Positions 1,815 through 57,566 of a DNA stretch of 64,000 nt are shown piece by piece (position 1 is the stretch's first letter; each line of letters begins with the position of its first letter). Made by a program: the position numbers and the translations under genes. The notes below the pieces were generated by a model. The model was not told where the DNA came from. It ran no database searches and saw only the letters and a program-made list of their open reading frames with translations. This DNA comes from an uncultured Acidobacteriota bacterium (GTDB lineage Bacteria; Acidobacteriota; Vicinamibacteria; Vicinamibacterales; Fen-181): contig CAVSGZ010000007.1 of NCBI GenBank assembly GCA_963727765.1, positions 462,344 to 526,343 of the forward strand, written 5' to 3'.

Positions 1815-2533
1815 CGCCCGCTACTCCACGCCTGCGCGGCGTCCTCGTCGACCCGCTGCTGTCGGTCGTGATGGCCGTCTACAACGAACGTGAGACGATC
1901 GAGGAAATCGTCAGGCGCGTCCTCGGCGTGCCACTCCGTATCCAGCTCATCGTGGTGGACGATGGGTCGACCGACGGTTCGCGCGAGATCCTGCAGCGTC
2001 TCGGTCAGGAACTCAAGTTCACGCTGGTCCTGCAGGACAGGAACCGCGGCAAGGGGGCGGCGCTTCGGCGCGGGTTCCAGGAGATGCAGGGGGACCTGGT
2101 GGTGGTCCAGGACGCAGACCTGGAATACTCGCCCGAGGAATACCCCGACCTCATCGAGCTGATCTGCCAGGGACGGGCAGACGTGGTGTACGGCTCGCGG
2201 TTCATCGGCCGCCACCGTGTCTTCATGTTCTCGCACTACATGGGCAACCGGATCGTGACGCTGCTGACCAACATCCTCTACAACACGATGCTGACCGACA
2301 TGGAGACCTGCTTCAAGGTCATGCGGGCCGAGATCGTGCGGGGGATGACGCTCAGGTCCAACGGCTTCGGCATCGAGCCGGAGTTGACGGCCAAGATCTT
2401 CAAGGGCGGGCACAGGGTCTACGAGATCCCGATCACCTACGACGGCCGCGGCTACGAGGAAGGCAAGAAGATCACGTGGCGTGACGGGCTCGCCGCCTTG
2501 TGGGTCCTGCTCAAGTACCGGTTTATCGATTGA
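1811..2533 (+). CDS. Family 2 glycosyltransferase (polyprenol-phosphate sugar transferase-like)
   Basis: ATG 1811 overlaps the galE stop (ATGA). LSVVMAVYNE..VVDDGSTDGS..VQDADLEY is a GT-A fold with a DxD. The ORF track start at 1769 is probably an over-extension. Confidence 0.85.
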   Translation: MTPATPRLRGVLVDPLLSVVMAVYNERETIEEIVRRVLGVPLRIQLIVVDDGSTDGSREILQRLGQELKFTLVLQDRNRGKGAALRRGFQEMQGDLVVVQDADLEYSPEEYPDLIELICQGRADVVYGSRFIGRHRVFMFSHYMGNRIVTLLTNILYNTMLTDMETCFKVMRAEIVRGMTLRSNGFGIEPELTAKIFKGGHRVYEIPITYDGRGYEEGKKITWRDGLAALWVLLKYRFID

Positions 2534-4302: not shown

Positions 4303-4307
4303 GTCCC
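4266..4307 (+). repeat. Tandem heptanucleotide array GAATCCC x2, GAATCCT x3, GAGTCCC
   Basis: Read directly: six consecutive 7-nt units spanning the last codons and the stop of the ABC exporter, 12 nt upstream of the yicC ATG. Confidence 0.95.
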
Positions 4308-4318
4308 GTGTGGTGCCT

Positions 4319-5209
4319 ATGTTCCGCTCCATGACCGGTTTCGCGTCGTTGACCAGGGAAGACCCGCAGGCCACCGTCGGCGTGACGCTCCGCGCCGTCA
4401 ACCATCGGTACTTCGACGCGCAGGTGCGGCTGCCGCAGGGGCTTCTCGCTTCGGAGGCCAGGCTCAGGGGCCTGCTGCAGCGCCACATCGCGCGCGGGCG
4501 CGTCGAGCTGAGCGTGTCGGTGCAGTTGCGGGAGCCGCCGGCCCCCGAGATCGAACTGCATGAGGCGTTCGTGCGTCGGTTGGGCGAGGCCATCGACCGG
4601 GCGCGCGCCCAGGGCGTGGTCAGCGGCAGCCTGACGCCCGGCGATCTCGTGCGAATCCCGCAGGCGATCGTCTTCCGCGAACAGCCGGCCGAGTCGCCCG
4701 AGGCCGCCGCCTCGCTTGTGGGACTGGTGGAAGCGGCCGTCGAGGAGGCCATCGCGGCCCTCGACGCCATGCGGGTTCGCGAGGGTGAGCATCTCCGGAA
4801 CGACCTCGACGAACGGAGAGCGATGCTCTCGGGGCTCATCGAGCGCATTGCCGGGGCCGCCGCCGGGGGACGAGGCGAGTTCGAGGCCAGGCTCAGCGAG
4901 CGCGTCAAGGAGCTGAGCCGCGACCTGCCGGCCGATCCGGCGGCCATCGCCCAGGAGATCGTGCGCGCGGCCGGCCGGTCGGACATCAGCGAGGAGGTCG
5001 TGCGGTTCCGGGCCCACCTGGCGCACTGGACCGTGATTGCCGAGGGCGAGGAGCCGTGCGGCCGCAAGTTCGACTTCCTGCTGCAGGAGATGAACCGCGA
5101 GGTCAACACCATCGGCTCGAAGGCCGACGGCCTCGCGGTCACCGAACTCATCGTCACCGCCAAGGCCGAACTGGAGAAGATGCGGGAACAGGTGCAGAAT
5201 GTCGAATAG
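4319..5209 (+). CDS. yicC: YicC family stress-induced protein
   Basis: MFRSMTGFAS N-terminus and C-terminal FLLQEMNREVNTIGSKA motif typical of YicC. ATG 4319 preferred over GTG 4310. Confidence 0.88.
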   Translation: MFRSMTGFASLTREDPQATVGVTLRAVNHRYFDAQVRLPQGLLASEARLRGLLQRHIARGRVELSVSVQLREPPAPEIELHEAFVRRLGEAIDRARAQGVVSGSLTPGDLVRIPQAIVFREQPAESPEAAASLVGLVEAAVEEAIAALDAMRVREGEHLRNDLDERRAMLSGLIERIAGAAAGGRGEFEARLSERVKELSRDLPADPAAIAQEIVRAAGRSDISEEVVRFRAHLAHWTVIAEGEEPCGRKFDFLLQEMNREVNTIGSKADGLAVTELIVTAKAELEKMREQVQNVE

Positions 5210-15356: not shown

Positions 15357-16760
15357 CTAGTTCTCAGGCTCAGGCTTCTCGTCGCCTCCAGGATCAGGCT
15401 CGCCGTCCTTCTGCAGATGGTACTTGCGCATCTTGTTGTAAAGCGTCGCCCTGTCGATATCCAGCGTGCGGGCTGCGAGACTGATGTTCCCCTCCGAGCC
15501 CTGCAGGACCCTGGCGATGTGATGGCGCTCCACGCCCTCGAGCGACGCCAGCGCACTGCCGTTCTGGGCGTCGGCGCAGGGCGGACGCCGCAGACCCAGA
15601 TCGGCGGTTTGAATCACGGGTCCCGTGGTGACCACCATCGCCCGCTCGAGGCTGTTGGCCAGTTCGCGGACATTGCCCGGCCAGGTCTGGCTCATGAGCA
15701 ACCGCATGGCGTCACCTGACACGCCGTCCACGCGGCGGTTCGTCTCGGCCCCGAGCCTCTCCAGCAGATGCTCGACCAGCAGCGGCAAATCCGAGACCCG
15801 GTCGCGCAGCGGCGGCACATTGATCTGAATGATGTTTAGCCGATAGAACAGATCCCGGCGGAAGTTCCCCGCATCGACGTCCTTCTGCAGGGCGCGGTTG
15901 GTCGCGGCGATGATGCGCACGTCGACGTGGACGGATTCCGATCCGCCGACCCTGAAGAACTGCCGGTCCTCGAGCACGCGCAGCAAGTCGAGCTGGACCT
16001 TCGCGCTGATGTCGCCAATTTCGTCGAGGAACAGCGTGCCGCCGTCGGCCATCTCGAACTTGCCCTTGTGCCGCGCGGCCGCGCCGGTGAAAGCCCCCTT
16101 CTCGTGCCCGAAGAGCTCCGACTCGAGCAGCGTCTCGGTGAGCCCCGCGCAGGCGACGGCGACAAACGGCCCCTCGTTCCTCGGGCTCTCCGCGTGGATG
16201 GCGCGCGCGAGCAGCTCCTTGCCGGTCCCGCTCTCGCCGAGGATGAGGATGGTCGAGTTGCTGCGCGCGGCCGTGCGCGCGAGGTCGAAGACCGCCTGCA
16301 TCTCCGCGCTCTTGCTGATCAGGTCGCGGAAGTGATACTCGCGCTTGAGCACCTTGCGCAGCAGCACGTTCTCCCGGACGAGCGCCTGCTGGGTGACGAT
16401 CTTCTGGATCATCAGGCTCAGCTCTTCGGGGTCGAAGGGCTTGGTCAGGTAGTCGTAGGCGCCGATCTTCATGGCCGCCACGGCGCTGTCCACGGTGGCG
16501 TAGGCGGTCATGATCACGGTAGCGGCCTCAGGCTGCGTCTTCTTCGCCTCCTCGAGCACCTGCAGCCCGTCGATGCCGGGCATCTTCAGGTCCACGAGCA
16601 GGATCGACCATCGCTCCTTGTGGATGCGGTCGATGCCGGTCTCCCCGTCGGGCGCCGATGCGAGCGTGTAGCCGTCTTTCTCGAGCCACGCCGACAGCGA
16701 CTCACGCACGATCTCCTCATCGTCCACGATGAGGATGCGGGCTCGTTCTCTACTCATCAT
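15357..16760 (-). CDS. Sigma-54-dependent response regulator (NtrC family)
   Basis: Receiver domain (ILIVDDE..LLVDLKMPG), AAA+ GESGTGKELLARAIH, GAFTGA loop, C-terminal Fis-type HTH. Confidence 0.92.
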   Translation of the reverse strand: MMSRERARILIVDDEEIVRESLSAWLEKDGYTLASAPDGETGIDRIHKERWSILLVDLKMPGIDGLQVLEEAKKTQPEAATVIMTAYATVDSAVAAMKIGAYDYLTKPFDPEELSLMIQKIVTQQALVRENVLLRKVLKREYHFRDLISKSAEMQAVFDLARTAARSNSTILILGESGTGKELLARAIHAESPRNEGPFVAVACAGLTETLLESELFGHEKGAFTGAAARHKGKFEMADGGTLFLDEIGDISAKVQLDLLRVLEDRQFFRVGGSESVHVDVRIIAATNRALQKDVDAGNFRRDLFYRLNIIQINVPPLRDRVSDLPLLVEHLLERLGAETNRRVDGVSGDAMRLLMSQTWPGNVRELANSLERAMVVTTGPVIQTADLGLRRPPCADAQNGSALASLEGVERHHIARVLQGSEGNISLAARTLDIDRATLYNKMRKYHLQKDGEPDPGGDEKPEPEN

Positions 16761-18507
16761 GTTGGTGTCCTTGCTTGCGGATCTCCGCGTAGCGCGACTC
16801 GCAGTCGTGGCACAGCGCCGTGTCCTTCATATCCACCTGGGCCAGCGTCGCCGACCGCGCTATGACGCAGGTCGGCAACCGCACGATCACGGTCGTCCCT
16901 TCGCCCAACGCGCTCTCGATCTCGAGCGTCCCGCCGTGGCGCTCGATGATGCCGTAGACCACCGACAGGCCGAGGCCCGTTCCCTTCTCCTTGGTCGTGA
17001 AGAACGGGTCGAGGATGCGGGGCAGGAGCGCTGGCGCGATGCCCGGACCGGTATCGGTCATGCGCACCTCCACCTTCGAGCCGACATCCCGCGAGGTGAC
17101 GGTGAGCGATCCGCCCGTGGCCATCGCCTCGCACGCGTTGAGGGCGATGTTCACGAACGACTGGCGCAGCTGGCCGAAGTCGGCCTTCACGAGCGGCGTC
17201 GGCGGCAGGTCTTTCGCGAGCGTCACGTTCTGCATCTGCAGCCGGTGGGCGAGCAGGGACAAGGCCTCTTCGACGACCGCGCTGACGTCGAGCTCCTTCA
17301 GGCTCGGCGGGCGCTGCCGGGCAAAGTCGAGCAGGTTCCGGACGATCCCGCTGCAGCGCTCGGTTTCGCGCTGCACGAGCCGGAGGTTGCGCGTGCAGTT
17401 CTCGCGCATCTTCTCGTTGAGCTCGCCCTCCTCGTGCATGCGGATGAGGAGCTTGGCGTAGGTCAGGATGCCGGCCAGCGGGTTGTTGATCTCATGGGCC
17501 ACCGACGCGGCGAGCTTGCCGAGCGACGACATCTTCTCGGACTGGATGAGCTGCGCCTGTGCGCTCTTGAGGGCGTTGGTGCGCTCCTCGACCTGGCGCT
17601 CGAGGGTCTCGTTCAGCTGCCGGAGCTCGTCGTGCGCCTGTCCGAGCGACGTCGTCATCTGGTTGAACGAGGCGGCGAGCCGGCCGATCTCGTCGGTTTG
17701 CCGCATCCGGATCTGGTGGCCGAGATCGCCCTGGGCCACGCGTTCGGTGGCGGCGACAATCTCGCCGATCGGTCGGATGACGCGGCCCCTGAAGAACAGG
17801 CCCACGGCGACAGCCAGCAGCAGCACGCCGATCACCGAGAACACCGTCGTCTTGCGCCCGAGCGCGGCCACGGCGTGGTCCTCGTCCTCGAGAGACATCG
17901 CGATGTCCACCACGCCGAGCACGGGCCTGGCGGCCGGATGCACGTGACACGAGGCGGACGAACAGGTGGCCTCGTTGTAGATCGGCGTGATCATGGCGAG
18001 GACGCGGTGGTTGTTGCGCCTGAAGATGCGCGAGCGCGACGGCATATTGAGTCGCACGAGGGGCTGGCCGGCGGCGTGGCAGGCGTAGCAGGCCTCGGCG
18101 CGCTTGTCGACCAACCGGCCTTCCTCGGCCCGGTCGGTCGAGAAGGTGACGCGCCCCTCCTTGTTGAGCATCCGGACCTGCTCGATCCCGCGGAGCCGCC
18201 CAATCATGTCCATCGTGCGATAGGCGGCGGCCCGGTCGTTGCTCAACATGAAGTGGTAGGTGCTGGCCTTGATGGTGTCGCTGAACTGCGCCGCGCCGCG
18301 GAGCACCTCCGCGGTCAGATAGGCCTGCTGGGCGCGCAGGCTCGTCACGATGAGGACGGCGCCAGAGACCAGCGTCACGAGCGCGATGACGCCCGCCGCC
18401 TGGACGCCCAGGCGATTCCACCACCGGACCCGAAGCGTCGGGGTCGGCGGCAGGACCTGCGGCTCAGTTGGCGTCTGGGGAGGCATCACGGCACTCCAGG
18501 CCGGCAC
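16750..18507 (-). CDS. Sensor histidine kinase with two TM helices, a periplasmic loop carrying CXXCH, HAMP, HisKA and HATPase domains
   Basis: H-box SVAHEINNPLAGI, N/G boxes (NIALNACEA, TDTGPGI, GTGLGLS), HAMP after TM2. CYACH at 18076..18090 and CSSASCH at 17944..17964 lie in the predicted periplasmic loop. Confidence 0.9.
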   Translation of the reverse strand: MPAWSAVMPPQTPTEPQVLPPTPTLRVRWWNRLGVQAAGVIALVTLVSGAVLIVTSLRAQQAYLTAEVLRGAAQFSDTIKASTYHFMLSNDRAAAYRTMDMIGRLRGIEQVRMLNKEGRVTFSTDRAEEGRLVDKRAEACYACHAAGQPLVRLNMPSRSRIFRRNNHRVLAMITPIYNEATCSSASCHVHPAARPVLGVVDIAMSLEDEDHAVAALGRKTTVFSVIGVLLLAVAVGLFFRGRVIRPIGEIVAATERVAQGDLGHQIRMRQTDEIGRLAASFNQMTTSLGQAHDELRQLNETLERQVEERTNALKSAQAQLIQSEKMSSLGKLAASVAHEINNPLAGILTYAKLLIRMHEEGELNEKMRENCTRNLRLVQRETERCSGIVRNLLDFARQRPPSLKELDVSAVVEEALSLLAHRLQMQNVTLAKDLPPTPLVKADFGQLRQSFVNIALNACEAMATGGSLTVTSRDVGSKVEVRMTDTGPGIAPALLPRILDPFFTTKEKGTGLGLSVVYGIIERHGGTLEIESALGEGTTVIVRLPTCVIARSATLAQVDMKDTALCHDCESRYAEIRKQGHQHDE

Positions 18508-20391: not shown

Positions 20392-20757
20392 ATGGCAGCG
20401 AAGCAAATCGGCGGCACGGCAGCGAAGACCGGCTTCTACTGGAACCTGGGCAAGTGGAAAATCACCATGGTGCCCAGGCAGGGCGGCACCCTGCCCGGAG
20501 ACGCGAACCGGCGCTACGTGAAGATCCCCGTCCTGGCGCTGCTCGTCGTGGCCCCGCTTATGGGCGCCGTCTACGTGATTCTCCTGCCGTTTGTCGGCCT
20601 CCTCGGGCTGTTCAGGCTCTTCGGCAAGGAGGCGGCCGCGGCCGGTCCCGGAGCCTCGGACGCCGAAGACGGCGACGTTGTCGATCCGGTCTCGATTGAC
20701 GCCTCGGTCCAGGGCAAGCAGCGCACCGAGCCGCGGCGGCCGGACCTGCACGACTGA
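20392..20757 (+). CDS. Small membrane protein, hypothetical (121 aa)
   Basis: ATG 20392 preceded by GGAGAGG. One long hydrophobic segment (IPVLALLVVAPLMGAVYVILLPFVGLLGLF). Lies in the frame of track ORF 19600..20757. Confidence 0.55.
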   Translation: MAAKQIGGTAAKTGFYWNLGKWKITMVPRQGGTLPGDANRRYVKIPVLALLVVAPLMGAVYVILLPFVGLLGLFRLFGKEAAAAGPGASDAEDGDVVDPVSIDASVQGKQRTEPRRPDLHD

Positions 20758-20945
20758 GGGAACTCAGGCTGTAGCCTCCACTCTCTGGTTGCCGCGATCT
20801 GCGGCGACGATCCAGGTCCGCGCCGAGCCGCACAGGGGTGTGTCCTGGTGTTGCGTGCAAATGCTGTCGCGCCAACGACTTGCGCTGCGTCGGTGCGGAC
20901 CTGGCGCGCCGACCGGAGTCTCGACCATTTCGGTGTGCTTTCGAG

Positions 20946-20973
20946 TTGACATGTCGGGCGCATTCGACATAAT
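20946..20973 (+). promoter_or_regulatory. Candidate sigma70-type promoter (TTGACA-16 nt-CATAAT) upstream of the fused cytochrome gene
   Basis: TTGACA at 20946..20951 and CATAAT at 20968..20973, about 100 nt upstream of ATG 21074. A GGGAGG/CCTCCC hairpin lies in the leader. Confidence 0.5.
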
Positions 20974-21073
20974 CAGGCGAATATCGGGAGGTGGCCCCTC
21001 CCGCGCCCGACACCGGAAACCTGACCAGACCCCTGAGGGCGAGACGTCTTCAGAGACGGCTGTTGCTATAACT

Positions 21074-24000
21074 ATGGACATCAATCGACGACGATTCCTC
21101 CGATTCGGTCTCGCCGCTTCATCTGTGGCGACCTCGTCTTCCCTCCTCGCCAGCGAGTCGCCGAGTCCCGCGGCGGCGGCCATGCCCGACCACGTCGGCG
21201 TGCTCGTCGACACCACGCTGTGCATCGGCTGCCGTGAATGCGAGTCGGCCTGCAACCGCCGCAACAACCTGCCTCGTGTCACGACCTCTTTCTCCGATCG
21301 AGGCATCTTCAGGACGTTCCGCCGCCCATCGGAGACCGCCTTCACCGTCGTGAACCAGTTCCCTGGCAGCCCGTCGCACGACCAGGCCTCGCTTCAGGAG
21401 ACCTATTGCAAGGTGCAGTGCATGCACTGCCTGAACCCCTCCTGCGTCTCGGCCTGCATCGTCGGAGCGCTGACCAAGGCGCCAGATGGGGCAGTCGTCT
21501 ACAACCCGAGGATCTGCATCGGCTGTCGATACTGCCAGGTCGCGTGCCCGTTCGAGGTCCCGGCCTACGAGTTCAACGAACCGCTCGTACCGCGCGTCCG
21601 GAAGTGCGAGTTCTGCAGCGATCGGGTGAAGGGCACCGGTGCCAATCCCGCGTGCGCGGCCTCGTGCCCGACCGAGGCGCTGGTGTTCGGGCGCCGCGCC
21701 GATTTGGTGGCCATGGCCAAGGAGCGGCTCGCCCGCCGGCCCGACCGCTATGTCGACCACCTGTACGGGGAGCATGAGGTGGGGGGCACGTCGTGGATAT
21801 ACCTCACGGGGCGGCCCGTGCAGGAGGTCGGGCTGGTGAACCTGCCCGACACGCCGCCGCCGGAACGTACCGAGGCCATCCAGCACGGCATCTTCAAGTA
21901 CGGCATCATTCCGGTCGCCGTTTACGGCCTGTTGGCGGCCGTCATGTGGCACACACATCGGCAGCACCCGGAAGACCATCCGGGCATTGGTGAGGTCAGC
22001 AGCCCGGCTTCCGCCGCCAAGCCGGGACGAGGGTGGGCGATCATGACGCCGCTGCACAGCGACCGGCCGCATCGCGTCACAAAGCCGTTCTTCACGTTTG
22101 GCACCGTGACGTTGTGTCTCATCATGGGCGTCGGCTACGCCTTCGGCATCACGCGGATGCTGCTCGGCCTCGGCCGCGTGACCAACCTCGACAACCACAG
22201 TCCGTGGGGCATCTGGATCTCGTTCGACGTCGCGTGCGGCGTGGCACTGGCCGCCGGCGGTTTCACCACGGCGGCGCTCGTCGACATCTTCGGCCAGCGG
22301 CGGTTCAAGGCGCTGCTCCGTCCCGCCATCCTCACCGCCTTCCTCGGCTACCTCTGGGTGGCCATCGCCCTCAGTTTCGACCTCGGGAGGTACTGGAACA
22401 TCTGGCGCCCGATCTTCAACTGGCAGGGCAACTCGGTGCTGTTCGAAGTCGGGATGTGCGTCACCGTCTACCTCATGGTGCTGACGGTGGAGATGAGCCC
22501 GTCGATCCTGGAGGGCCTGAAGGCGCGGGTCGATCAGGACGAGTGGGGAGCCAGGCTGCTTCGGAAGATCGATCGGCCGCTGATGACGCTGTACGCGGCA
22601 GTCCGGATTGTCCTGCCGCTGTTCATCGTCGCCGGCGTGGTCCTGTCGTGCATGCACCAGTCGTCGCTCGGCACGCTGATGCTGATCGCGCCGACCAAGT
22701 CGAGCCCGCTGTGGGACACGGCCATGCTGCCCGTGCTGTTCCTGCTGTCGGCGACGATGGTCGGTTTCCCGATGGTGATTCTCGAGTCCATCTACGCGAA
22801 CATCAGCTTCGGCCGCAACCCGGAGATGGAGCTGCTGACGCCGATCGCGAAGATGATCCCCTGGTTCATCGGCGCCTACGGGGTCGTGAAGCTGGGCGAC
22901 CTGGCGTTCCGCTTCGGCAGCCTGGACTTCTTCGCGCACCCGGCGGCCACCACCTCGCTCGCGGTGGAGATCCTCCTCGGTGTCGTCGCGCCGTTCCTCC
23001 TGCTGCTCAACAAGGCGGTGCGCCGCTCGCAGGGGTGGCTGTTCCTCTCGGTGGCGCTCATCATTTTCGGCGTCGTACTGAACCGGATTAACGTGTTCCT
23101 GGTCGGCTATACGCCGCCCTACGCGACACACGCCTACTTCCCCTCGGTGGGCGAGATCGCGATGACGTTCGCGATCGTGTCGAGCATCCTGTTCTGCTAC
23201 CGCTTCTTCGTCACGTTCTTCCCCATCCTGCCCGGCTACCTGCCGGAGAGCGAGAACCAGCTCGAACGCATCCGCGAGGAGCGGGAGAAGACAGTGAGCC
23301 CGTTCTGGACGTGGGTGATTCGGGGGGCGGCCATCGCGTTTCTGATCGGGTTCGTCGGACTCTACAACGGCGTCCACGTGACCGCCATGCGGGGATCGAC
23401 CCGGCTCGTCGCGGATATCCGGCGGGTCCAGTCGGCCGCACCGGTCTTCGTCAAGGTCGAGGCCGTCGCCTACCCAAACCGCCCGGCGGCCTACCGGAAC
23501 TTCTTCGAGCTGAACAGCGAGGCGTTGAGGGCGAAATCGGACGACTACGAGCCGGTGGCCTTCTCGCACCGCATCCACGACGAGATCACGGGCGGGGACT
23601 GCGGCGCCTGCCACCATCGCTTTTCGTCCGACCCGAAGGACCGGGTCGGCGTGGACATCCGCGAACTCCACGGGCAGTTCGGAGTGAAGCTGGGCGGAGC
23701 CTGTTCCACCTGCCACCAGGACATGCAGACGAACGCGCCCCAGGGCTGCCCCCGCTGCCACGGCAACCCGTCGGAGGCTGATGCGCCGTCGCGGATTGGA
23801 CTCAAGGGTGCCTACCACCGGCAGTGCATCGGTTGTCATCAGAGCCAGCCCAAGACGGCGTCCGCGCCGACGGCCTGCAACGGCTGCCATCATCCATGGA
23901 CGCCCGACCACGGCAGGCTCGTGAACCTTCCGGCACATTCGAGTCCGCAGGACGTGACGCGCGCGTGCCTCTCCTGCCACGCGAAAGCCGGGCATGACAT

Positions 24001-25336
24001 GCTGAACACCGCCCATTGGACCTGGAAGGGGATGTCGCCGACGCTCAAGGGATACGAGCACCGCCTGGACGTCGGCCTCACCGTGCTGGCGAACGGCAGC
24101 TGCGCGGCGTTCGGCTCGTCCTCCGGTGAATGCGCGTCATGCCATGTCGGCTACGGTTGGGTCGACACGAAGTTCGACTTCACCAACCCGGACAACATCG
24201 ACTGCCTCGTGTGCCACGACACGACCGGAACCTACCGCAAAGAGCCGGGCCGTGCCGGCTTGCCGGACCCCTCGCTCGACCTCGAGGCCATCGCCCGGAA
24301 GGTCGGCCGTCCCTCGAAGCAGACGTGCGGATCGTGCCATGTCGCCAGTGGTAGTGACGGCATCCTGTACGCGAAGCGAGGCGACCTCGAGCCCGCGCTG
24401 GCAAGTCCGCCCGCCGAACTCGACGTGCACATGGGCGCGCTCAAGATGCGATGCCAGGACTGTCACCAGACCAACGAGCACCGCGTCGCGGGCACCTCGA
24501 CCGGCCAGCCGGCCGCAGAAGGCCCGGTGTCGTGCGAGAAGTGCCATGGCCAGACGCCGCATGGCGTGGCCGGCGTGCTCAGCCGGCACCTCGACGATCA
24601 CGTCAGGGCAGTGGCGTGCGAGACCTGCCACATCCCGTCGTTCGCGCGCACGTCACCGGCACTGCTCCGACGCGACTACTCGGCGGCCGGCGCCGATCGG
24701 CCCGCGACGGTCGGCCGCGACGGGATGCCGCAGTACGACAAGCGCTTCGGCACGCTCACCTGGGGCAAGGAGGTGGCGCCAATCTACCTCTGGTACGACG
24801 GCACACGGACTCCCTCGGTCGCCGGTGACGCCATCGACCCGTCGAAACCGGTTGTCCTCAACCCACCGGTGGGCGAGAAGCGAAACCCGGCCGCGCGGAT
24901 CTTCCCGTTCCAGGTGCAGGCGGCCGTGCAACCCTACGACTCCATCAACAAGGTCCTGGCATTGCCGAAACTGCTCGATGGGTACTGGGTCAATTTCGAC
25001 TGGTCGAAGTCGATCGCCAGCGGGATGCAGGAGGCGAACGTCCCCTATTCCGGGAAATACGGCTTCGTCGAAACCAGGATGTACGTCCCGATCTACCATG
25101 AGGTCGTCGCCGCCAAGAAGGCGTTGGGCTGCGCCGACTGCCATGCCGCCGACGCCATCACCTGCACCCGGTGTCACAAGGACGCGGCAGGGATGAACCT
25201 CCCCGAACATCGGCGCGCGGTCTATCCGGCCGTGTCGCGGCGGATTGACTTCAAATCGCTTGGGTACCCTGACGATCCCGCTCGGACCGGTGGGCGGTTC
25301 TACGTCGGGCTCGGCCGCGGCGTGCCGCCGCGGTAA
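21074..25336 (+). CDS. Fusion protein: Tat-signal 4x[4Fe-4S] ferredoxin (NrfC/HybA-like) + NrfD/HybB-like polytopic membrane domain + multihaem cytochrome c with 14 CXXCH
   Basis: No in-frame stop from 20591 to 25336. ATG 21074 gives MDINRRRFLRFGL (twin-Arg). Four Cys clusters, then about 12 hydrophobic helices, then 14 CXXCH motifs (CGACH, CSTCH, CPRCH, CIGCH, CNGCH, CLSCH, CASCH, CLVCH, CGSCH, CQDCH, CEKCH, CETCH, CADCH, CTRCH). Confidence 0.85.
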   Translation: MDINRRRFLRFGLAASSVATSSSLLASESPSPAAAAMPDHVGVLVDTTLCIGCRECESACNRRNNLPRVTTSFSDRGIFRTFRRPSETAFTVVNQFPGSPSHDQASLQETYCKVQCMHCLNPSCVSACIVGALTKAPDGAVVYNPRICIGCRYCQVACPFEVPAYEFNEPLVPRVRKCEFCSDRVKGTGANPACAASCPTEALVFGRRADLVAMAKERLARRPDRYVDHLYGEHEVGGTSWIYLTGRPVQEVGLVNLPDTPPPERTEAIQHGIFKYGIIPVAVYGLLAAVMWHTHRQHPEDHPGIGEVSSPASAAKPGRGWAIMTPLHSDRPHRVTKPFFTFGTVTLCLIMGVGYAFGITRMLLGLGRVTNLDNHSPWGIWISFDVACGVALAAGGFTTAALVDIFGQRRFKALLRPAILTAFLGYLWVAIALSFDLGRYWNIWRPIFNWQGNSVLFEVGMCVTVYLMVLTVEMSPSILEGLKARVDQDEWGARLLRKIDRPLMTLYAAVRIVLPLFIVAGVVLSCMHQSSLGTLMLIAPTKSSPLWDTAMLPVLFLLSATMVGFPMVILESIYANISFGRNPEMELLTPIAKMIPWFIGAYGVVKLGDLAFRFGSLDFFAHPAATTSLAVEILLGVVAPFLLLLNKAVRRSQGWLFLSVALIIFGVVLNRINVFLVGYTPPYATHAYFPSVGEIAMTFAIVSSILFCYRFFVTFFPILPGYLPESENQLERIREEREKTVSPFWTWVIRGAAIAFLIGFVGLYNGVHVTAMRGSTRLVADIRRVQSAAPVFVKVEAVAYPNRPAAYRNFFELNSEALRAKSDDYEPVAFSHRIHDEITGGDCGACHHRFSSDPKDRVGVDIRELHGQFGVKLGGACSTCHQDMQTNAPQGCPRCHGNPSEADAPSRIGLKGAYHRQCIGCHQSQPKTASAPTACNGCHHPWTPDHGRLVNLPAHSSPQDVTRACLSCHAKAGHDMLNTAHWTWKGMSPTLKGYEHRLDVGLTVLANGSCAAFGSSSGECASCHVGYGWVDTKFDFTNPDNIDCLVCHDTTGTYRKEPGRAGLPDPSLDLEAIARKVGRPSKQTCGSCHVASGSDGILYAKRGDLEPALASPPAELDVHMGALKMRCQDCHQTNEHRVAGTSTGQPAAEGPVSCEKCHGQTPHGVAGVLSRHLDDHVRAVACETCHIPSFARTSPALLRRDYSAAGADRPATVGRDGMPQYDKRFGTLTWGKEVAPIYLWYDGTRTPSVAGDAIDPSKPVVLNPPVGEKRNPAARIFPFQVQAAVQPYDSINKVLALPKLLDGYWVNFDWSKSIASGMQEANVPYSGKYGFVETRMYVPIYHEVVAAKKALGCADCHAADAITCTRCHKDAAGMNLPEHRRAVYPAVSRRIDFKSLGYPDDPARTGGRFYVGLGRGVPPR

Positions 25337-25404: not shown

Positions 25405-27432
25405 CTACTCGTCGCGAGCGGCTTCGGCTCCGGCGGCGCCCGTCGCCTTCACGTCGTGGCCCGGCCCGTCCGGCGTCGCGTGGGTCCGGTGTGCCGGCCT
25501 CGTGCCGGTAATCCACGACGGGTTCATCGGGTACTCACCCGGATCGAACACCACCCAGTAGAAATGCCACACGAGGATGGCGAGCGTGGCGAGCACCGCC
25601 TCGTAGTAGTGGATCACCTGCGCCACGTCGTGCCACACCTTGGGCAGCAGGCGCAGGACGGTCTCGGTGAACACCAGCATGATGCCGGTCACGGCCATGA
25701 TCACCGAGCCCCACACCAGTGCCCAGTATTCCGCCTTCTCGGCGTAGTTCCACCGGCGGGCCGGGGGCTGGCCGGCACCGATTCCCAGGTTGTACATCAC
25801 TTGGGCCCACGCGTCCTTCGCGTCGGCCCATGCGAACCACAGCGCACGGCCTTGACTGCGGCCGGACCGCGTACCCAAGAGGGCGCCGAGGTGCACGACG
25901 AAGAAGACCACGAACGCCCATCCGAAGACGCGGTGGAGCAGCGCACGCAGCGCGTTCCCGTCGGGCAGGACCGTGAACGGCCAGCTGAAGAACGCCTCCG
26001 GGAACTTGTGGACGAACCCGGTGTAGGCCAGGCCGACGAACAGCACCATAAGCACCGTGTGCTGATGGCGAAGCCACGGTGTCAGGCGCACCTCCGCGTT
26101 GGGGTCGGCCTTCACGGCGCGCACATGGTCTCTGGACTTGCGGTAGTAGTCGAGTGCGACGAACAGCGCCATTCCGCCAATCGTCACCACGATGACGACG
26201 ATGTAGACGATGGTGACGAGGTTGACGACCCACGGCTTGTCGGCGTGCGGGCCGGACGGCGCGTGGACCCTGAAGAACTCGGCGCTCATTCGGTTGCCGA
26301 TGCCGGGATGGCACTTGCCGCAGGTCTGGGGCAACTGTGCCGGGTTGACCTTCGATTCCGGATCCGATGACGGCAGAATGTCGTGGACGCCGTGGCAGGA
26401 CGAGCAGTTGGCGACTGTGACGTTGCCGCCCTGCAGCGCCAGGCCGTGGAAGCTCTGGGTGTAGGTGCTCATGACGTCGGGCGGCAGGCCGTACTGCGTC
26501 GCGATCCGCTGCGCCGCATGGCACTGGGCGCACGTCCCGGGCACGTTCGCGGCGGACACCCGCGACGAAGCGAGCTTCACCGCCGCGATGCTGTGCTCGC
26601 CGTGGCAGTCAGTGCAGACGGGCGCGTCGCGCACGCCCTGCGCCACCGCTTTGCCGTGGATGCTCATGGCGTAGGTGCGCTGGATGTTCTCGTGGCATTT
26701 CCCGCAGGTCGAGGGCACGGTGCGCCAGTAGAGCTTGGAGTTGGGGTTGGTCGACTTGTGGAGGTCGTGCGACCCGTGGCAGTCAGTGCAGACGGCGGAG
26801 TTCATTACCTTCTTCTGGATGACGGCGATGCCGTGGACGCTCGTCTCGTAGCTGACAATCGGGTTCTCCTGGCTCAGGTTGAACCGCCGCATCTCCGCCG
26901 TATTGCCGTGGCAGCGTCCGCAGGTGGTCGCGAGATTGGCCCGGTTGACCGGGGACTGCGGATCCCGCGAGTTCAGCAGGATGTGGGACGCTCCGTGACA
27001 GTCCTTGCATGAGGCGGCCTCGGTGACGCCCTTGTGGACCGCCTGGCCGTGGTCGCTCTTCAGGTAGATTTCCGTCTCAATGCGATGGCAGTTCGAGCAG
27101 GCCACCGGCTTGGGCACGAACTTGTCGGGGTGCGGCACTTCCCGGATGTCCGTATGGCAGCTCGTGCAGCGGTTCTTGCCGTGGATCGACGCCTGATACT
27201 GCTGGAGGTCCACGAAGATCGATTTCGGCTTGCCGTCCGGTCCCGTCGTGGCGAAGTCCTTGTCACCATGACACGCCAGGCAGTCGGTGTTCGCGATGGC
27301 CGCCGGCGCCCTGGCGGCTGTTTGGGCTTTCAGGCTGGCAGCGCCGGCCAGCAGCACGAGCGCCACGAGAAAGAGGACTTCTAAGAACTCATGACTGCGA
27401 GCCGATCTGGTCGAGCCAGTGGGAGTGGGCAT
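25405..27432 (-). CDS. Multihaem cytochrome c (11 CXXCH) fused to a C-terminal dihaem cytochrome b-type (FdnI/HydC-like) membrane domain; CbcL-like
   Basis: Signal peptide, 11 CXXCH (CLACH..CGKCH), then 5 hydrophobic helices with conserved His (HQHTVLMV, LLHRVFGW..VVHLG, WHDVAQVIHYYE..VWHFYW). Confidence 0.85.
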   Translation of the reverse strand: MPTPTGSTRSARSHEFLEVLFLVALVLLAGAASLKAQTAARAPAAIANTDCLACHGDKDFATTGPDGKPKSIFVDLQQYQASIHGKNRCTSCHTDIREVPHPDKFVPKPVACSNCHRIETEIYLKSDHGQAVHKGVTEAASCKDCHGASHILLNSRDPQSPVNRANLATTCGRCHGNTAEMRRFNLSQENPIVSYETSVHGIAVIQKKVMNSAVCTDCHGSHDLHKSTNPNSKLYWRTVPSTCGKCHENIQRTYAMSIHGKAVAQGVRDAPVCTDCHGEHSIAAVKLASSRVSAANVPGTCAQCHAAQRIATQYGLPPDVMSTYTQSFHGLALQGGNVTVANCSSCHGVHDILPSSDPESKVNPAQLPQTCGKCHPGIGNRMSAEFFRVHAPSGPHADKPWVVNLVTIVYIVVIVVTIGGMALFVALDYYRKSRDHVRAVKADPNAEVRLTPWLRHQHTVLMVLFVGLAYTGFVHKFPEAFFSWPFTVLPDGNALRALLHRVFGWAFVVFFVVHLGALLGTRSGRSQGRALWFAWADAKDAWAQVMYNLGIGAGQPPARRWNYAEKAEYWALVWGSVIMAVTGIMLVFTETVLRLLPKVWHDVAQVIHYYEAVLATLAILVWHFYWVVFDPGEYPMNPSWITGTRPAHRTHATPDGPGHDVKATGAAGAEAARDE

Positions 27433-27623: not shown

Positions 27624-28010
27624 CTACCGGTCTGGCCCAATCGAGAGCACATAGGCGGTCAACTGGAGTACGGCGTCCTCTCCGAGGGAGCGCCAACCAG
27701 GCATCGGCGTTCCGGGCAAGCCGTCGCGCACCGCCCGGTACACCCGCTGGGGGGAGGTCGACTGACGCCACGCCTGGTTGGTGAAGTCGCGCGGCGGCGT
27801 CGAAAACGCCGAAGCCCGCATCCCCTGGCCGTCGCCCCGCGCGCCGTGGCAAATCTCGCAATAGCGCTGATACAGCGCGCGGCCTGCGCGAGCGGCCTCT
27901 GGGGCAGCGACGCGCGAGTCGAAGTCGGGCGGCAGGTCAGTGGGACGACGACACGACAGGCCTGTCGCCGCCAGCCACGCCGCCGCCACGACCGGAAGCA
28001 GTCGGGGCAT
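27624..28010 (-). CDS. Monohaem class I cytochrome c
   Basis: CEICHGARGDGQG haem motif and distal PMPGW Met. N-terminal hydrophobic signal MPRLLPVVAAAWLAA. Start is 28010 or 28067, and either overlaps the end of the protease gene. Confidence 0.75.
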   Translation of the reverse strand: MPRLLPVVAAAWLAATGLSCRRPTDLPPDFDSRVAAPEAARAGRALYQRYCEICHGARGDGQGMRASAFSTPPRDFTNQAWRQSTSPQRVYRAVRDGLPGTPMPGWRSLGEDAVLQLTAYVLSIGPDR

Positions 28011-28503
28011 CGCCAGCCTTCTTCTCGAGCGGGTAGCCGAGGCGGGCGGCTTCCTCGCAGACGACATCGACGAGCTGCGTGAAGGTGGCCTGCACCCGGG
28101 GTGACAGCCCGATCCCCAGTTCCGTCGTCTCGGGCACGCTGCCGAGCAAGACCAGAGTGGGAGGCACCCGGCCGCGCCATCGTGCGGCCTCGATCAAGTC
28201 TGACACGCCCACCTGGTGGACCGAGAGGCGGCCCGCGACGGCCGGGCCGACCTCCTCGCCCTCGAGGCGCACGAGCGTGCCCGGCGGCCCGTCGGCGTCG
28301 ATGGCATCGACGAGGATCGCGCACTCGGCGTCTTCGAGGTAGGGCAGAAGCTGGAGGCCCAGGGTGCCGCCGTCGAGAACCTGCACGCCGTCGGGCAGCG
28401 TGCGGGTCTCGGCAATCCGCTGGGCCACCATGGCTCCGAGCCCATCGTCGGTGCACAGCAGGTTGCCGAGGCCCAGGATCAGCAGGCGCGAACGACTATC
28501 CAC
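27937..28503 (-). CDS. [NiFe] hydrogenase maturation endopeptidase (HyaD/HybD family)
   Basis: LILGLGNLLCTDDGLGAMV..ILVDAID..HQVG motifs, directly downstream of the cytochrome b subunit. Confidence 0.88.
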   Translation of the reverse strand: MDSRSRLLILGLGNLLCTDDGLGAMVAQRIAETRTLPDGVQVLDGGTLGLQLLPYLEDAECAILVDAIDADGPPGTLVRLEGEEVGPAVAGRLSVHQVGVSDLIEAARWRGRVPPTLVLLGSVPETTELGIGLSPRVQATFTQLVDVVCEEAARLGYPLEKKAGDAPTASGRGGGVAGGDRPVVSSSH

Positions 28504-29224
28504 GCGTGTCCTTGCGGTCGATGAACCGATAGCCCGAATACACGAGGTCCTCGCGCGGCACGAACTTGTAGCCCGAGAAGATCGACTCCACCGTCGCGTT
28601 GGCCTCGACCTGTGACATCAGGACCGCGCTGTAGACGTGGTGAACGGCAAATCCGATCAGCATCCACATGAACCCGTGGTGGAGCCAGCGGGCCGTCGAG
28701 ACGCCGCCGAACCACGGCACCAGGAAGGTGAACCACCGGAGCGGCGAGCCGACGTGGGCGCTCACCGAGTACATCGCGAGCCCGGTGCCGAGCATGATCA
28801 GGTAGACCACGAACACGACCGTGTAGGCGAGGCCCGCCAGCGGGTTGTGGCCGACGAACCCGGGCGGCTTCCGAAATCGGAACAGGTAGTAGCCGAGCGT
28901 CGGCCCGAGGGCCTTCCAGCGTTTCTTGCGCGCCGGCACGAACTTGTCCCACCTCGCATAGTTGTTGCCGGCGAACATCCACCAGATCCGGCTGATGACG
29001 GCGATGCCGAAGACGATCGCCGTCGAGTAATGAATCAGCTTGGCGAGCCCCATCAGCGACCGCTGGGACGCCAGGCCGGTCGTGATCGGCCCCGGGTTTG
29101 CGATGTAGAGGCCGGTGACCGCCAGCACGGCGATCGAGCCGGCGATGAACCAGTGGCACACGCGCACGGGCCACTCCCAGACGTAGACCCGGACGGTCTC
29201 GGCGAGGGGTTGGTCCTGGATCAT
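28496..29224 (-). CDS. Ni/Fe-hydrogenase b-type cytochrome subunit
   Basis: VYVWEWPVRVCHWFIA.. with four TM helices and conserved His. Overlaps the large-subunit stop. Confidence 0.9.
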   Translation of the reverse strand: MIQDQPLAETVRVYVWEWPVRVCHWFIAGSIAVLAVTGLYIANPGPITTGLASQRSLMGLAKLIHYSTAIVFGIAVISRIWWMFAGNNYARWDKFVPARKKRWKALGPTLGYYLFRFRKPPGFVGHNPLAGLAYTVVFVVYLIMLGTGLAMYSVSAHVGSPLRWFTFLVPWFGGVSTARWLHHGFMWMLIGFAVHHVYSAVLMSQVEANATVESIFSGYKFVPREDLVYSGYRFIDRKDTRG

Positions 29225-30927
29225 GGGAGCCTCACTCGCGCGACTTCCTGCTTGCGCGCGTCAAGGACGTGGACGCCACAGGCCAGACAGGGATCGAACG
29301 AGTGGATCGTGCGCAGGATCTCGACCGGCTTGGTCGGATCGGCGACCGGCGTGCCGAGCAGGGCTTCCTCGTACGGCCCGCGCTGGCTGCTGGCATCGCG
29401 CGGCCCGGCGTTCCACGTGCTGGGCACGATGCACTGGTAATTGGCGATGGCGCCGTTGCGGATGTGGACCCAGTGGCCCAGCGCCCCGCGCGGCGCTTCG
29501 TGAAACCCGGCCCCCGACGCGTCCGCCGGCCAGCTCGACGGATCCCACTTGGCGTTGTCGTGCGTCCGCAGGTCGTGCCGCGCCATGTTGGCGGCAAGCT
29601 GGTCGAGCCATTCCCCCTGCTTCTCGGCGAGCACGAGCGTCTCGATGGCGCGCGCCGCCACGCGACCGAGCGTCGAGAAGAGCGCCTCCGGCCCGACATT
29701 CAGCTTCTGCAGCACCACGCCGACCAGTTCCTTCACGCGCGGGTGCCCGGACGCGTAGGCGACGAGCATCCGCGAGAGGGGACCGACTTCCATCGGCAGC
29801 CCGGCGTAGCGGGGCGACTTGAGCCAGCTGTACTTCGCGGCCGTATCGAGCCGCTCGTAGGGAGGCTTCGGGCCGGTGTACTTGGGTTTGGTTTCTCCCT
29901 GGAACGGGTGAAGCCCCTGCTGATCGCCGCCGTCGTACTCGTACCACGAGTGGCTGACCATTTCGGTGATCTGCCCCGTGTCGAGCTTCTCGACCTTGGT
30001 CAGATCCCGTCCCCGTATCACGCCGGAGGGGAAGAACAGCGGCGGGTTCGGCCCCTCGTCCTCCGGGTACTCGCCGTAGACGAGGTAGTTGCCCACGCCG
30101 GCTCCGTACGCGGCCCAGTCCTTGTAGAACGAGGCGACGGCGAGGACGTCGGGGATGTAGACGCGGGCCACGAAGTCGTGGGCCTTGGCGATGAGCGACC
30201 GCACCGAGGCCAGCGTGTCGGCGTTGAGCGAGGCCTGCTTGTCCAGATCCACAGGCGTCGCCATGCCGCCGACGAGGAAGCTCTGGAGGTGAGGGTTCTT
30301 GCCGCCGAGGATCGCGTGGACCTTGATCACCTCGCGCTGCCACTCGAGCGCCTCGAGGTAGTGCGCGACCGCCATGAGGTTGGCTTCCGGCGGCAGCTTG
30401 TAGGCGGGGTGGCCCCAGTAGGCGTTGGCGAACGGCCCGAGCTGGCCGCGTTCGACAAACGCCTTCAGCCGGTCACGCACTCCAGCGAAGTAGGTGGCGC
30501 TCGACAGCGGCCAGTCCGAGATCGATTCGGCGAGCGACGACGTCTTGACCGGGTCGGCGCTCAGGGCGGAGACGACGTCGACCCAGTCGAGCGCGTGCAG
30601 GTGGTAGAAGTGGATCACGTGGTCCTGCACTGCCTGCATCGCGATGATCAGGTTCCGAAGCAGGCGCGCATTGGGCGGCGGCACGGCGCCGATGGCGTTC
30701 TCGACGGCCCGGATCGACGCGATCGCATGCACCGTCGTGCACACGCCGCAGATTCGCTGGGTGAAGACCCAGGCGTCGCGGGGGTCGCGGCCCTGCAGGA
30801 TCATCTCGATGCCGCGGAACATGGTGGAGGAGGACCAGGCGTCGCGCACCGTGCCGCCGTCGACTTCAGCCTCGATCCTGAGGTGCCCTTCGATCCGGGT
30901 GACCGGATCAACGACGATGTGCGTCAT
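29221..30927 (-). CDS. [NiFe] hydrogenase large subunit (group 1, membrane-bound uptake type)
   Basis: RIEGHLRIE, N-terminal RICGVCTTVH and C-terminal DPCLACGVH Ni-binding motifs followed by a cleavable tail. Confidence 0.95.
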   Translation of the reverse strand: MTHIVVDPVTRIEGHLRIEAEVDGGTVRDAWSSSTMFRGIEMILQGRDPRDAWVFTQRICGVCTTVHAIASIRAVENAIGAVPPPNARLLRNLIIAMQAVQDHVIHFYHLHALDWVDVVSALSADPVKTSSLAESISDWPLSSATYFAGVRDRLKAFVERGQLGPFANAYWGHPAYKLPPEANLMAVAHYLEALEWQREVIKVHAILGGKNPHLQSFLVGGMATPVDLDKQASLNADTLASVRSLIAKAHDFVARVYIPDVLAVASFYKDWAAYGAGVGNYLVYGEYPEDEGPNPPLFFPSGVIRGRDLTKVEKLDTGQITEMVSHSWYEYDGGDQQGLHPFQGETKPKYTGPKPPYERLDTAAKYSWLKSPRYAGLPMEVGPLSRMLVAYASGHPRVKELVGVVLQKLNVGPEALFSTLGRVAARAIETLVLAEKQGEWLDQLAANMARHDLRTHDNAKWDPSSWPADASGAGFHEAPRGALGHWVHIRNGAIANYQCIVPSTWNAGPRDASSQRGPYEEALLGTPVADPTKPVEILRTIHSFDPCLACGVHVLDARKQEVARVRLP

Positions 30928-32054
30928 ACGGTGTCCCCCTTCTTCGAGTCAGTCGTCTGGGGCTGCGCCGGCTCGGGTTCGGGCTTCTGGCGCGAGCGCT
31001 TGATGTAGGAGATCAGCCCGTGGGTGGCGAACGCCGCGGCGATGCCGGCCGTGGCCGCCACGCCGACGCGGTCCACGGTGTAGCCGGGCCCCAGGAAGGG
31101 CGGTCCCGGCAGGTGGTTGTAGAACGGCGTCATCTTGTCCCAGAAGTCCGGTTCGGCACAGCCCACGCATGGGTGGCCGCAGCCGATCGGCCAGTTGGTG
31201 CCCTCGTTCCAGCGGACGCGCGGGCAGTTCTGGAAGGTCACCGGCCCCTTGCAGCCCATCTTGTAGAGGCAGTACCCGGTGCGGTGCCCCTCGTCTCCCC
31301 AGGCCTCGACGTACTGGCCGGCGTCATAGTGCGCGCGCCGTTCGCAGTTGTCGTGGATCAGCTTGCCGTAGGCGAACAGCGGCCGCCCGAACTCGTCGAG
31401 CGGCGGCCAGTACTTGAAGGTGAGATAGTGCACGAGCAGCGCCGTGATGTTCTCGGCGTTGGCCGGGCAGGCCGGCAGGTTCACCAGGTTCTTGATTCCC
31501 GGCACCGCGTCGCGCACGCTCAGCGCGCCGGTCGGGTTGGGCGACGCCGCCGGCAGGCCGCCGTACGCCGCGCACGTGCCCATGGCGATGGTCGCCGCGG
31601 CTCCGCCGCACACCTCGCGCGCGATGTCGATCGCCGCGCGGCCGCCGATCGTGCAGTAGGCCCCGTTCTCAAACGTCGGGATCGAGCCCTCCACGACGAC
31701 GAAGTACTGCCCCTTCTTGTCGCCCACGACCTTGTGCAGCGCTTCCTCGGCTTGCGTGCCGGCCGCCGCCATGATCGTCTCGTGATAGTCCACCGAGAAC
31801 ACGTCGAGGACGATGTCCGCGACCGTTGGGCGCGCCGCCCGGAGGAACGACTCGGTGTTGCCGCAGCAGTCCTGGAACTCGAGCCAGACCAGCACCGGCT
31901 TCTCGGCCCCCTGGATGGCCTTGGCGATCTTCGCCGACACCGACGCCGGCAAGGCGAGTGTCGAGGCCATGACGGTGCAGAACCCCAGGAAATCGCGGCG
32001 GGACACCCCTCGCCGCTCCAGTTCCTCGATGAACCAGTTCTCGCGCTCGCTCAT
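30924..32054 (-). CDS. [NiFe] hydrogenase small subunit with Tat signal and C-terminal membrane anchor
   Basis: RRDFLGFC twin-Arg signal, FeS Cys ligands (WLEFQDCCGNTES, CPANAEN, CGHPCVGC), C-terminal hydrophobic helix. Confidence 0.95.
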   Translation of the reverse strand: MSERENWFIEELERRGVSRRDFLGFCTVMASTLALPASVSAKIAKAIQGAEKPVLVWLEFQDCCGNTESFLRAARPTVADIVLDVFSVDYHETIMAAAGTQAEEALHKVVGDKKGQYFVVVEGSIPTFENGAYCTIGGRAAIDIAREVCGGAAATIAMGTCAAYGGLPAASPNPTGALSVRDAVPGIKNLVNLPACPANAENITALLVHYLTFKYWPPLDEFGRPLFAYGKLIHDNCERRAHYDAGQYVEAWGDEGHRTGYCLYKMGCKGPVTFQNCPRVRWNEGTNWPIGCGHPCVGCAEPDFWDKMTPFYNHLPGPPFLGPGYTVDRVGVAATAGIAAAFATHGLISYIKRSRQKPEPEPAQPQTTDSKKGDTV

Positions 32055-50708: not shown

Positions 50709-50755
50709 GGACAAGGGGTAGCGCACGAAATTCCCGTGTCATAATGAGAGGTCGG

Positions 50756-50832
50756 GCGCCCGTAGCTCAGCAGGATAGAGCATCGGTTTCCTAAACCGGG
50801 GGTCGCGTGTTCGAGTCACGCCGGGCGCACCA
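50756..50832 (+). tRNA. tRNA-Arg (anticodon CCT); its 3' 45 nt form attL of the integrated element
   Basis: Acceptor GCGCCCG/CGGGCGC, D stem GCTC/GAGC, anticodon stem TCGGT/ACCGG with loop TTCCTAA, T arm GCGTG-TTCGAGT-CACGC, CCA encoded. Confidence 0.9.
50788..50832 (+). repeat. attL: 45-bp direct repeat (3' part of tRNA-Arg)
   Basis: TTCCTAAACCGGGGGTCGCGTGTTCGAGTCACGCCGGGCGCACCA is identical to 59725..59769. About 24 further nt are 18/24 similar. Confidence 0.9.
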
Positions 50833-50873
50833 CTTATCATCAATATAGACAGGCAGATACAGAGACGGCCGGA

Positions 50874-51477: not shown

Positions 51478-51547
51478 CGAGCACCTCTTGGGTGTCTGAG
51501 AGTCGGGGCGGCCCGGCCATCCGGCTAGCACCGCCCCGTGGTGAACG

Positions 51548-51978: not shown

Positions 51979-51987
51979 GTTCGCCCC

Positions 51988-54469: not shown

Positions 54470-54470
54470 G

Positions 54471-57222: not shown

Positions 57223-57289
57223 AAGCTCTCCCTTGTGGCGACTGCGCCCGGTTCGAGTGCCTGCTCGCGCCGGGCGTTCGCGCGTACAG

Positions 57290-57526: not shown

Positions 57527-57566
57527 GCAGAGAGCATGAACGCGAGCACGGGACCGTGTTACTTCG

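Follow-up and report, generated by a model that had tools for sequence, protein, structure and literature searches.

A survey (bioRxiv 10.1101/2023.11.02.564894, PMC10924467) described a module encoded by three genes: a tail-anchored iron–sulphur (FeS) protein exported by the twin-arginine translocation (Tat) system, a HybB-like quinol oxidase, and an octahaem cytochrome c of the octahaem tetrathionate reductase (OTR) family. Comparable parts occur in the Hmc complex of Desulfovibrio, which combines the 16-haem HmcA, the FeS protein HmcB and the NrfD-like HmcC, and in the HybA and HybB subunits of E. coli hydrogenase-2. Menaquinol:cytochrome c oxidoreductase operons of metal reducers and Ca. 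Methanoperedens, as well as the Geobacter Cbc complexes, likewise link the quinone pool to a periplasmic haem chain. Here we describe a related locus in a 64,000-nucleotide (nt) stretch of DNA, hereafter the window, from an uncultured Acidobacteriota bacterium (Vicinamibacterales, Fen-181; assembly GCA_963727765.1, contig CAVSGZ010000007.1, positions 462,344 to 526,343). An earlier note, made from the sequence alone, had read a single open reading frame (ORF) at 21074–25336 as an evolved fusion of an FeS subunit, an NrfD-like membrane subunit and a 14-haem cytochrome. Our comparisons make it highly probable that the locus is a two-gene quinone-linked module whose genes are joined by one extra nt, either through a very recent frameshift or through an assembly or sequencing indel. 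The fusion of the NrfD-like domain to the cytochrome is, judged from its relatives, a genuine, fixed and widespread design.

The locus shares with the three-gene module its parts and their order, the twin-arginine signal, the C-terminal helix of the FeS protein and the lack of conserved flanking genes. It differs in carrying the HybB-like and cytochrome parts in one gene, in having an extra helix, an added five-haem block and a fourteenth haem, and in an FeS gene that stands in frame with its neighbor. HmcB and HmcC rank high among the NCBIfam matches, but all three Hmc models score below their equivalog cutoffs (HmcB, 313.8 versus 420; HmcC, NF045714, 271 versus 550; HmcA, 69.6 versus 400), and the HmcA model matches only via its last domain. 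The haem domain of the window is mostly OTR-like, and no HmcDEF-like genes were found among the adjacent genes scanned. With hydrogenase-2 the window shares a HybA match that passes its cutoff (NF008134, 273.7 versus 263 bits), the ten helices of HybB, the experimentally tested HybB residues and overlapping genes, whereas the HybB match stays below its equivalog cutoff (NF008133, 308 versus 450) at 33% identity and the operon is without hydrogenase subunits. On these scores the NrfD-like domain is classed as a relative of HybB and HmcC, not an orthologue. The operons of metal reducers and Methanoperedens differ from the window in having separate subunits and different cytochromes, and a Methanoperedens locus (L011) carries a 41%-identical relative in separate genes.

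As the earlier note claimed, no in-frame stop interrupts the frame from 20591 to 25336, which closes with TGA at 25334–25336, and 1,420 residues are encoded from the ATG at 21074. This ATG is likely the true start, because FeS homologues open with MDLxRRRFL and the window with MDINRRRFL, and because a strong sigma-70-like promoter match lies upstream of it (11 of 12 consensus positions, with 0.5 such matches expected in shuffled sequence). An RR pair falls within the first 15 residues in 118 of 120 FeS homologues. The two ends of the frame have separate sets of relatives. All 120 of the best homologues of the whole ORF (53–82% identity) are 990–1,105 amino acids (aa) long, lack the FeS part and cover 70–77% of the query, that is, the NrfD domain onward; all 120 of the best homologues of residues 1–323 (69–81% identity) are stand-alone proteins of 317–340 aa. 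An evolved triple fusion in this lineage is contradicted by both sets.

The difference was traced to the variable tail of the FeS protein. Counted from the conserved HPGIG codons to the NrfD-cytochrome ATG, the window exceeds its eight closest relatives by 1 nt, and MAFFT places the gap at about 22020–22026, in a G/C-rich run AAGCCGGGAC (CCGGG). As written, the joined protein reads ...AAKPGRGWAIMTPLH... across the junction, while in the alternative frame the tail terminates with ...PSRDEGGRS and a stop. Deleting one base turns the tail into DHPGIGEVSSPASAAKPDEGGRS followed by the stop, 23 residues past HPE, a length identical to that in eight related loci (L001, L003, L006, L012, L013 and L016–L018). 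It also gives the FeS protein an end soon after its anchor helix, a tail-anchored feature that all 120 homologues possess and that the window as written lacks. In the closest genome (L001/L002, 81–82% identity) the FeS stop TGA overlaps the next ATG as ATGA, and the same overlap with equal frame offset occurs in L003–L006, L009, L010 and about 65 metagenome loci. Since the downstream gene is offset backwards by one base, a single +1 indel anywhere in the tail suffices to fuse both frames, and no chance run of open codons is required for the join.

An in-frame junction was found in none of 240 homologous clusters and, among about 85 loci, only in the error-ridden L008 and the decayed L082/L083. 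None of these was accepted as support: L008 has several other frameshifts in the same gene, and L082/L083 represent a 31%-GC copy full of frame changes, with most of the OTR domain missing. P0263, which appeared to be a junction-spanning protein, was rejected as a frameshift-ridden gene call. L008 and the P0263 call show that sequencing indels do yield the same false join. In L007, L008 and L009, contigs of MFD-named metagenome-assembled genomes (MAGs), the NrfD-cytochrome gene is split among several frames, as is typical of an indel-rich long-read consensus; these assemblies serve as a control for what error looks like in this gene. In L082 (FWWM01024325.1) and L083 (FWPU01017280.1), at about 2000–4900, a TGA stands where a conserved Trp is expected, between WGI and IAIDV; this copy is a decaying pseudogene, a gene in an alternative genetic code or a poor assembly. 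The earlier note considered the fusion not an obvious artefact; comparison with relatives in effect points to an indel that separates the modules. Whether mutation or artefact, the FeS-NrfD join is, on this comparative evidence, not an evolved feature of the lineage.

The proposed identities of the three modules were each supported by Pfam and NCBIfam profile searches. Residues 1–300 match Fer4_11, HybA and HmcB, the twin-arginine motif NRRRFL occupies residues 4–9, and 16 cluster cysteines fall into four groups (50–60, 116–128, 148–158 and 178–198). The NrfD family (PF03916) matches residues 369–679 with 62.5 bits against a gathering cutoff of 25.8, and residues 333–720 also match the HybB and HmcC models. 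No CXXCH occurs before residue 843, so the membrane part is free of haem motifs. Subunits of the NrfD family are cofactor-less and bind quinone near the periplasmic face, beside the FeS subunit, and replacing R89, Y99, E148 or H184 of HybB impairs activity in E. coli (PMC8076601). These residues correspond to R416, Y426, E473 and H528 of the window and are kept in 39–40 of 40 family members.

Hydropathy reproduced the 1+10+1 helices counted before, with one helix at 272–292, ten at 338–723 and one at 743–770; in the alignment, E. coli HybB stops just ahead of the last of these, the eleventh helix of the second gene. The K/R-rich loops share one side, which places the FeS and haem domains both in the periplasm and bears out the coherent topology proposed earlier. 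An AlphaFold2 model of residues 324–1420 has the same 10+1 long helices. Its predicted local distance difference test (pLDDT) values are 60–84 in the membrane part and below 50 in the haem part, too poor for judging haem ligation. With this model Foldseek matched OTR (1SP3), PsrC and the ten-helix ActC subunits of alternative complex III, the latter at a TM-score of 0.61–0.65 for the NrfD-like domain.

The part of the fusion claim that concerns the NrfD-cytochrome junction stood, and only the FeS-NrfD junction fell. Wherever a contig is long enough, the NrfD frame of the relatives continues stop-free into the haem domain, as dozens of independent metagenome contigs show; 12 CXXCH motifs lie in the first 980 aa of dozens of them, and complete genes have 14. 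Named sources of the homologues are MAGs of Acidobacteriota, NC10/Methylomirabilota, Binatia and Thermoanaerobaculia. A literature search found no description of an NrfD-cytochrome or FeS-NrfD fusion. Shorter NrfD-multihaem fusions of about 794–820 aa with 12–13 CXXCH were seen in L088 (Ga0315279_10005528) and L090 (Ga0315289_10056833), their NrfD parts being 58–65% identical to the window; because of these forms, NrfD-cytochrome fusions have more than one design.

All 14 CXXCH motifs noted earlier were confirmed, at residues 843–1364, and 13 of them are kept in 119–120 of 120 homologues. The first five do form a c3-like block, at residues 828–945, with a Cytochrome_C7 match at 828–896 and matches to the HmcA structures 1H29 and 1GWS; every CXXCH in it is kept in 120 of 120 homologues. 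Of the later sites, whose spacing the earlier note likened to that of OTR-family proteins, eight lie in register with 1SP3. The fourteenth lies beyond the aligned part of 1SP3, where the alignment ends at residue 416 of 443. Shewanella oneidensis OTR (1SP3) is the best fold match in the PDB. The domain of the window differs from it in being membrane-tethered, with five haems before it and one after.

Joined FeS and NrfD modules are found in other lineages. An exhaustive phmmer search of 1.84 billion representative proteins with residues 1–800 recovered proteins in which both halves fall in one continuous alignment. FeS-NrfD fusions with several members are P0243 (704 aa; at least 10 full-length members on 14 contigs), P0242 (771 aa; three full-length members), P0258 (724–725 aa, Nitrospinota; four full-length members), P0279 (749 aa; five members), P0253 (640–642 aa, Planctomycetota; two members) and P0272 (621 aa; two members). 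P0254 (725 aa) and P0261 (742 aa, Anaeromyxobacteraceae) are singleton FeS-NrfD matches. P0255 and its relatives (1,031–1,054 aa) are a true triple fusion. The 12 full-length members each come from a contig of their own, one of which is 2.2 Mb long, and the proteins combine a twin-arginine motif, TRRTAL, with Fer4_11, NrfD, an additional helix and 11 CXXCH. The statement that the three modules occur as separate polypeptides was thus too strong. A gene of the P0255 type at 6001–9108 of L093 (JGI Ga0645779_00011, the 2.2-Mb contig) stands alone beside a MarR-type regulator.

These fixed fusions resemble the window in module order on one polypeptide, in the twin-arginine motif and in an even helix count. 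P0243 has a CbcL-like gene before it, as a neighbor comparable to that of the window, and a separate multihaem cytochrome after it. P0242 shares with the window a histidine kinase and sigma-54 regulator pair, which precedes it, and is followed by two multihaem cytochromes. The fixed fusions differ from the window in identity (35–47%), in belonging to separate lineages, in their many full-length members and in the type of haem domain, whereas the join in the window is a singleton due to one base. Loci L095–L098 (6001–8115) and L099 (6001–8316) hold cytochrome-less FeS-NrfD fusions (704 and 771 aa) followed by separate multihaem cytochromes. The neighbors of one type are CbcL-like, ImcH-like (Cytochrom_NNT) and MtrC-like genes; a histidine kinase, a sigma-54 activator and an Rrf2 regulator precede the other.

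The extra base itself has a little less than an even chance of being an artefact and a little more than an even chance of being real, the latter share split roughly in half between a joined protein that is tolerated and an operon that is damaged. Several observations weigh against our preference for a two-gene module with an accidental join. We found no reads or independent assembly of this genome, so the base may be real: exact look-ups with the fused ORF, the CbcL-like neighbor and the hydrogenase large subunit returned no second copy, and genome and metagenome scans returned no contig of the same species, only relatives whose identity did not exceed 82% across the full protein or 95% in the best segment. 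About 35 other ORFs of the window have full-length domain matches and no signs of frameshifts; the assembly is therefore not generally indel-prone, which gives slight weight to a real mutation. The conserved fusions described above show that lineages can make and retain a joined protein. A real base could then yield a working 150-kDa chain, a nascent triple fusion with a Tat-targeted FeS domain, 12 helices and a 14-haem domain. The coherent topology with its even helix count and 40-residue cytoplasmic linker, the intact surrounding genes, the triple fusion fixed in the P0255 cluster and the FeS-NrfD fusions kept in at least six further clusters are all in keeping with such a protein. We nevertheless regard it as rather unlikely, given a singleton among the 240 clusters and about 85 loci of its own family, a Shine-Dalgarno (SD) sequence, ATG and latent TGA of the two-gene state that remain intact and give no sign of adaptation, and a sequence from which a free FeS subunit cannot be made. 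If it were correct, the FeS domain would be exported by Tat in the folded state while the next 11 helices and a 650-residue haem domain pass via Sec/YidC and Ccm, and an order of Tat domain first and Sec domains after would become approachable experimentally, with a natural unfused control one base away.

A real but harmful base is more doubtful again. Here the locus would be a fresh pseudogene, or the base a minority variant in the consensus, with the joined protein misassembled and only an internally initiated NrfD-cytochrome protein made. The stop has been lost from a Tat substrate whose anchor helix is normally followed by a short tail, the internal SD and ATG persist, and frameshifted cytochrome genes are common in bacteria (S. 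oneidensis provides an example, PMC3769277); yet both halves are otherwise intact in their cluster cysteines, haem motifs and key HybB residues, and joined forms are viable in other lineages. A different question concerns the cytochrome part, which might be a true terminal reductase of the OTR type (a menaquinol:tetrathionate, nitrite or hydroxylamine reductase) and not a conduit. The TIGR04315 model for octahaem tetrathionate reductase scores above its cutoff (442 versus 375 bits, residues 955–1360), and 1SP3 matches with E=1e-97 by sequence and a TM-score of 0.68 by fold. In OTR the haem ligand is Lys56 and the catalytic haem-2 motif is C74xxC77H78 (PMC3769277). The window and its clade retain the haem-2 CXXCH and the nearby Cys1010, equivalent to Cys64 of OTR, which leaves room for catalysis with another ligand and counts against a pure conduit. 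At the Lys56 position, however, the window has Leu, as do 106 of 120 relatives (three have Lys), the haem-2 motif is absent from 27 of 120 while the other 13 motifs are near-invariant, and the unrelated triple fusion P0255 has a compact 11-haem c3-like domain instead. Because the haem-2 motif is variably lost and Lys56 is replaced by Leu, a conduit role is favored: the OTR-like part is probably mainly a haem wire, not a lysine-ligated reductase, and a reductase of the OTR type seems unlikely.

Taken as two genes, the locus likely encodes a menaquinol:cytochrome electron-transfer module. The first product would be a Tat-exported, tail-anchored HybA/HmcB-like protein with four [4Fe-4S] clusters. 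The second would combine a cofactor-less ten-helix HybB/HmcC-like subunit, an eleventh helix and a periplasmic 14-haem cytochrome c composed of a five-haem HmcA-like block, an eight-haem OTR-like scaffold and one extra haem. The NrfD-like domain would oxidise menaquinol, or reduce quinone, at its site facing the periplasm, and electrons would be exchanged with a partner in the periplasm or outside the cell by way of first the four FeS clusters and then the tethered haems. The quinone chemistry may be proton-coupled, as proposed for HybB and QrcD; this coupling, like the partners and the direction in which electrons flow, is our inference. The two-gene state would involve no biogenesis conflict, with the FeS protein exported by Tat and the NrfD-cytochrome protein inserted by Sec/YidC and its haem attached in the periplasm. 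The coordinates of the features are collected in Table 1.

Table 1. Features of the FeS/NrfD-cytochrome locus and its neighbors in the window
Feature	Position (nt)	Strand	Basis or remark
Sigma-54-dependent response regulator	15357–16760	-	Domain match
HAMP histidine kinase	16750–18507	-	Domain match
Sigma-70-like promoter, TTGACA-16-CATAAT	20946–20973	+	About 100 nt 5' of the FeS gene start; consensus match only
FeS subunit gene, HybA/HmcB-like	21074–22042	+	Profile searches, cysteine and helix positions; no stop of its own here
FeS protein, twin-arginine signal			Residues 1–36
FeS protein, four [4Fe-4S] Cys groups			Residues 50–198; followed by a variable tail
FeS protein, C-terminal anchor helix	21887–21949		Residues 272–292
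Junction	21986–22046	+	Variable tail with one extra nt; alignment and relatives
SD-like GAGG	22029–22032
NrfD-cytochrome ATG	22043–22045
Latent FeS stop TGA	22044–22046		Out of frame
HybB/HmcC-like NrfD-family membrane domain	22043–23248	+	Ten helices, no redox cofactor; quinone site predicted from the family
Eleventh helix	23300–23383	+	Returns the chain to the periplasm; hydropathy, AlphaFold2 model
Five-haem c3/c7-like block	23555–23908	+	Closest to the C-terminal domain of HmcA
OTR-like domain, eight CXXCH	23936–25153	+	TIGR04315, alignment with 1SP3
Equivalent of OTR Lys56	24077–24079		Leu1002
Equivalent of the OTR haem-2 motif	24131–24145		C1020–H1024
14th haem site CTRCH (residue 1364), C-terminal tail, stop	25154–25336	+	Conserved in 120/120
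CbcL-like gene	25405–27432	-	Multihaem c3/c7 plus Ni_hydr_CYTB b-type cytochrome, 675 aa; last gene of the minus-strand operon
HyaD-type protease	27937–28503	-
Hydrogenase cytochrome b	28496–29224	-
[NiFe] hydrogenase large subunit	29221–30927	-
[NiFe] hydrogenase small subunit	30924–32054	-

The kinase and sigma-54 regulator upstream of the operon probably regulate it, as suggested by homologous pairs found next to the operon in about a dozen related loci; no other flanking genes were conserved among the related loci. No sigma-54 promoter was found upstream of the operon at up to two mismatches from the consensus, despite the adjoining activator. Downstream, an uptake-type [NiFe] hydrogenase operon with its own cytochrome b is convergent with the FeS/NrfD-cytochrome operon. 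The arrangement suggests that the hydrogenase, CbcL-like and FeS/NrfD-cytochrome genes form a respiratory island, a neighborhood not common to the relatives. Just upstream of the operon promoter, a small ORF (20395–20757, plus strand) encodes 120 aa with one hydrophobic helix; it matches no family, and none of the related loci has an equivalent ORF. Farther along, the several kb behind a tRNA gene (50756–50829) hold ORFs without Pfam matches whose third-position GC is lower, and a D5_N/DUF5906 primase-helicase-like ORF lies at 55527–56423 on the minus strand. The region of about 50750–58400 is probably an integrated mobile element.

For annotation, these results advise against carrying the 1,420-aa protein forward as if its architecture were established for the lineage. 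What is solid is the existence of a large uncultured family, found in Acidobacteriota, NC10, Binatia and other groups, in which a chain of 14 haems is attached directly to the HybB-like quinone subunit. The known module has here a widespread and apparently undescribed variant, in which NrfD is fused to a cytochrome with 14 haems and the OTR active site is decaying. The modules exist in four arrangements (three genes; FeS plus NrfD-cytochrome; FeS-NrfD plus cytochrome; all fused), Rosetta-stone evidence that the three work as one complex, and their stoichiometry is probably fixed. Since the fate of the OTR catalytic site is variable, the family also suggests an enzyme scaffold reused as a wire.

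The puzzle raised earlier, of an FeS domain exported folded by Tat on the same chain as haem sites matured by Sec and Ccm, is a fair one for the conserved fusion families, though not secure for this window. In the known dual Sec-Tat membrane proteins, such as actinobacterial Rieske proteins, the Tat-dependent domain comes last. The sequences of the conserved fusions are good evidence that a polytopic chain with the Tat signal first can be assembled, and how Tat and Sec cooperate becomes a real question for those that start with a Tat signal and go on into a polytopic protein bearing haem. Fusions of the P0255 type offer a clean natural test case for such Tat-first, Sec-after biogenesis.

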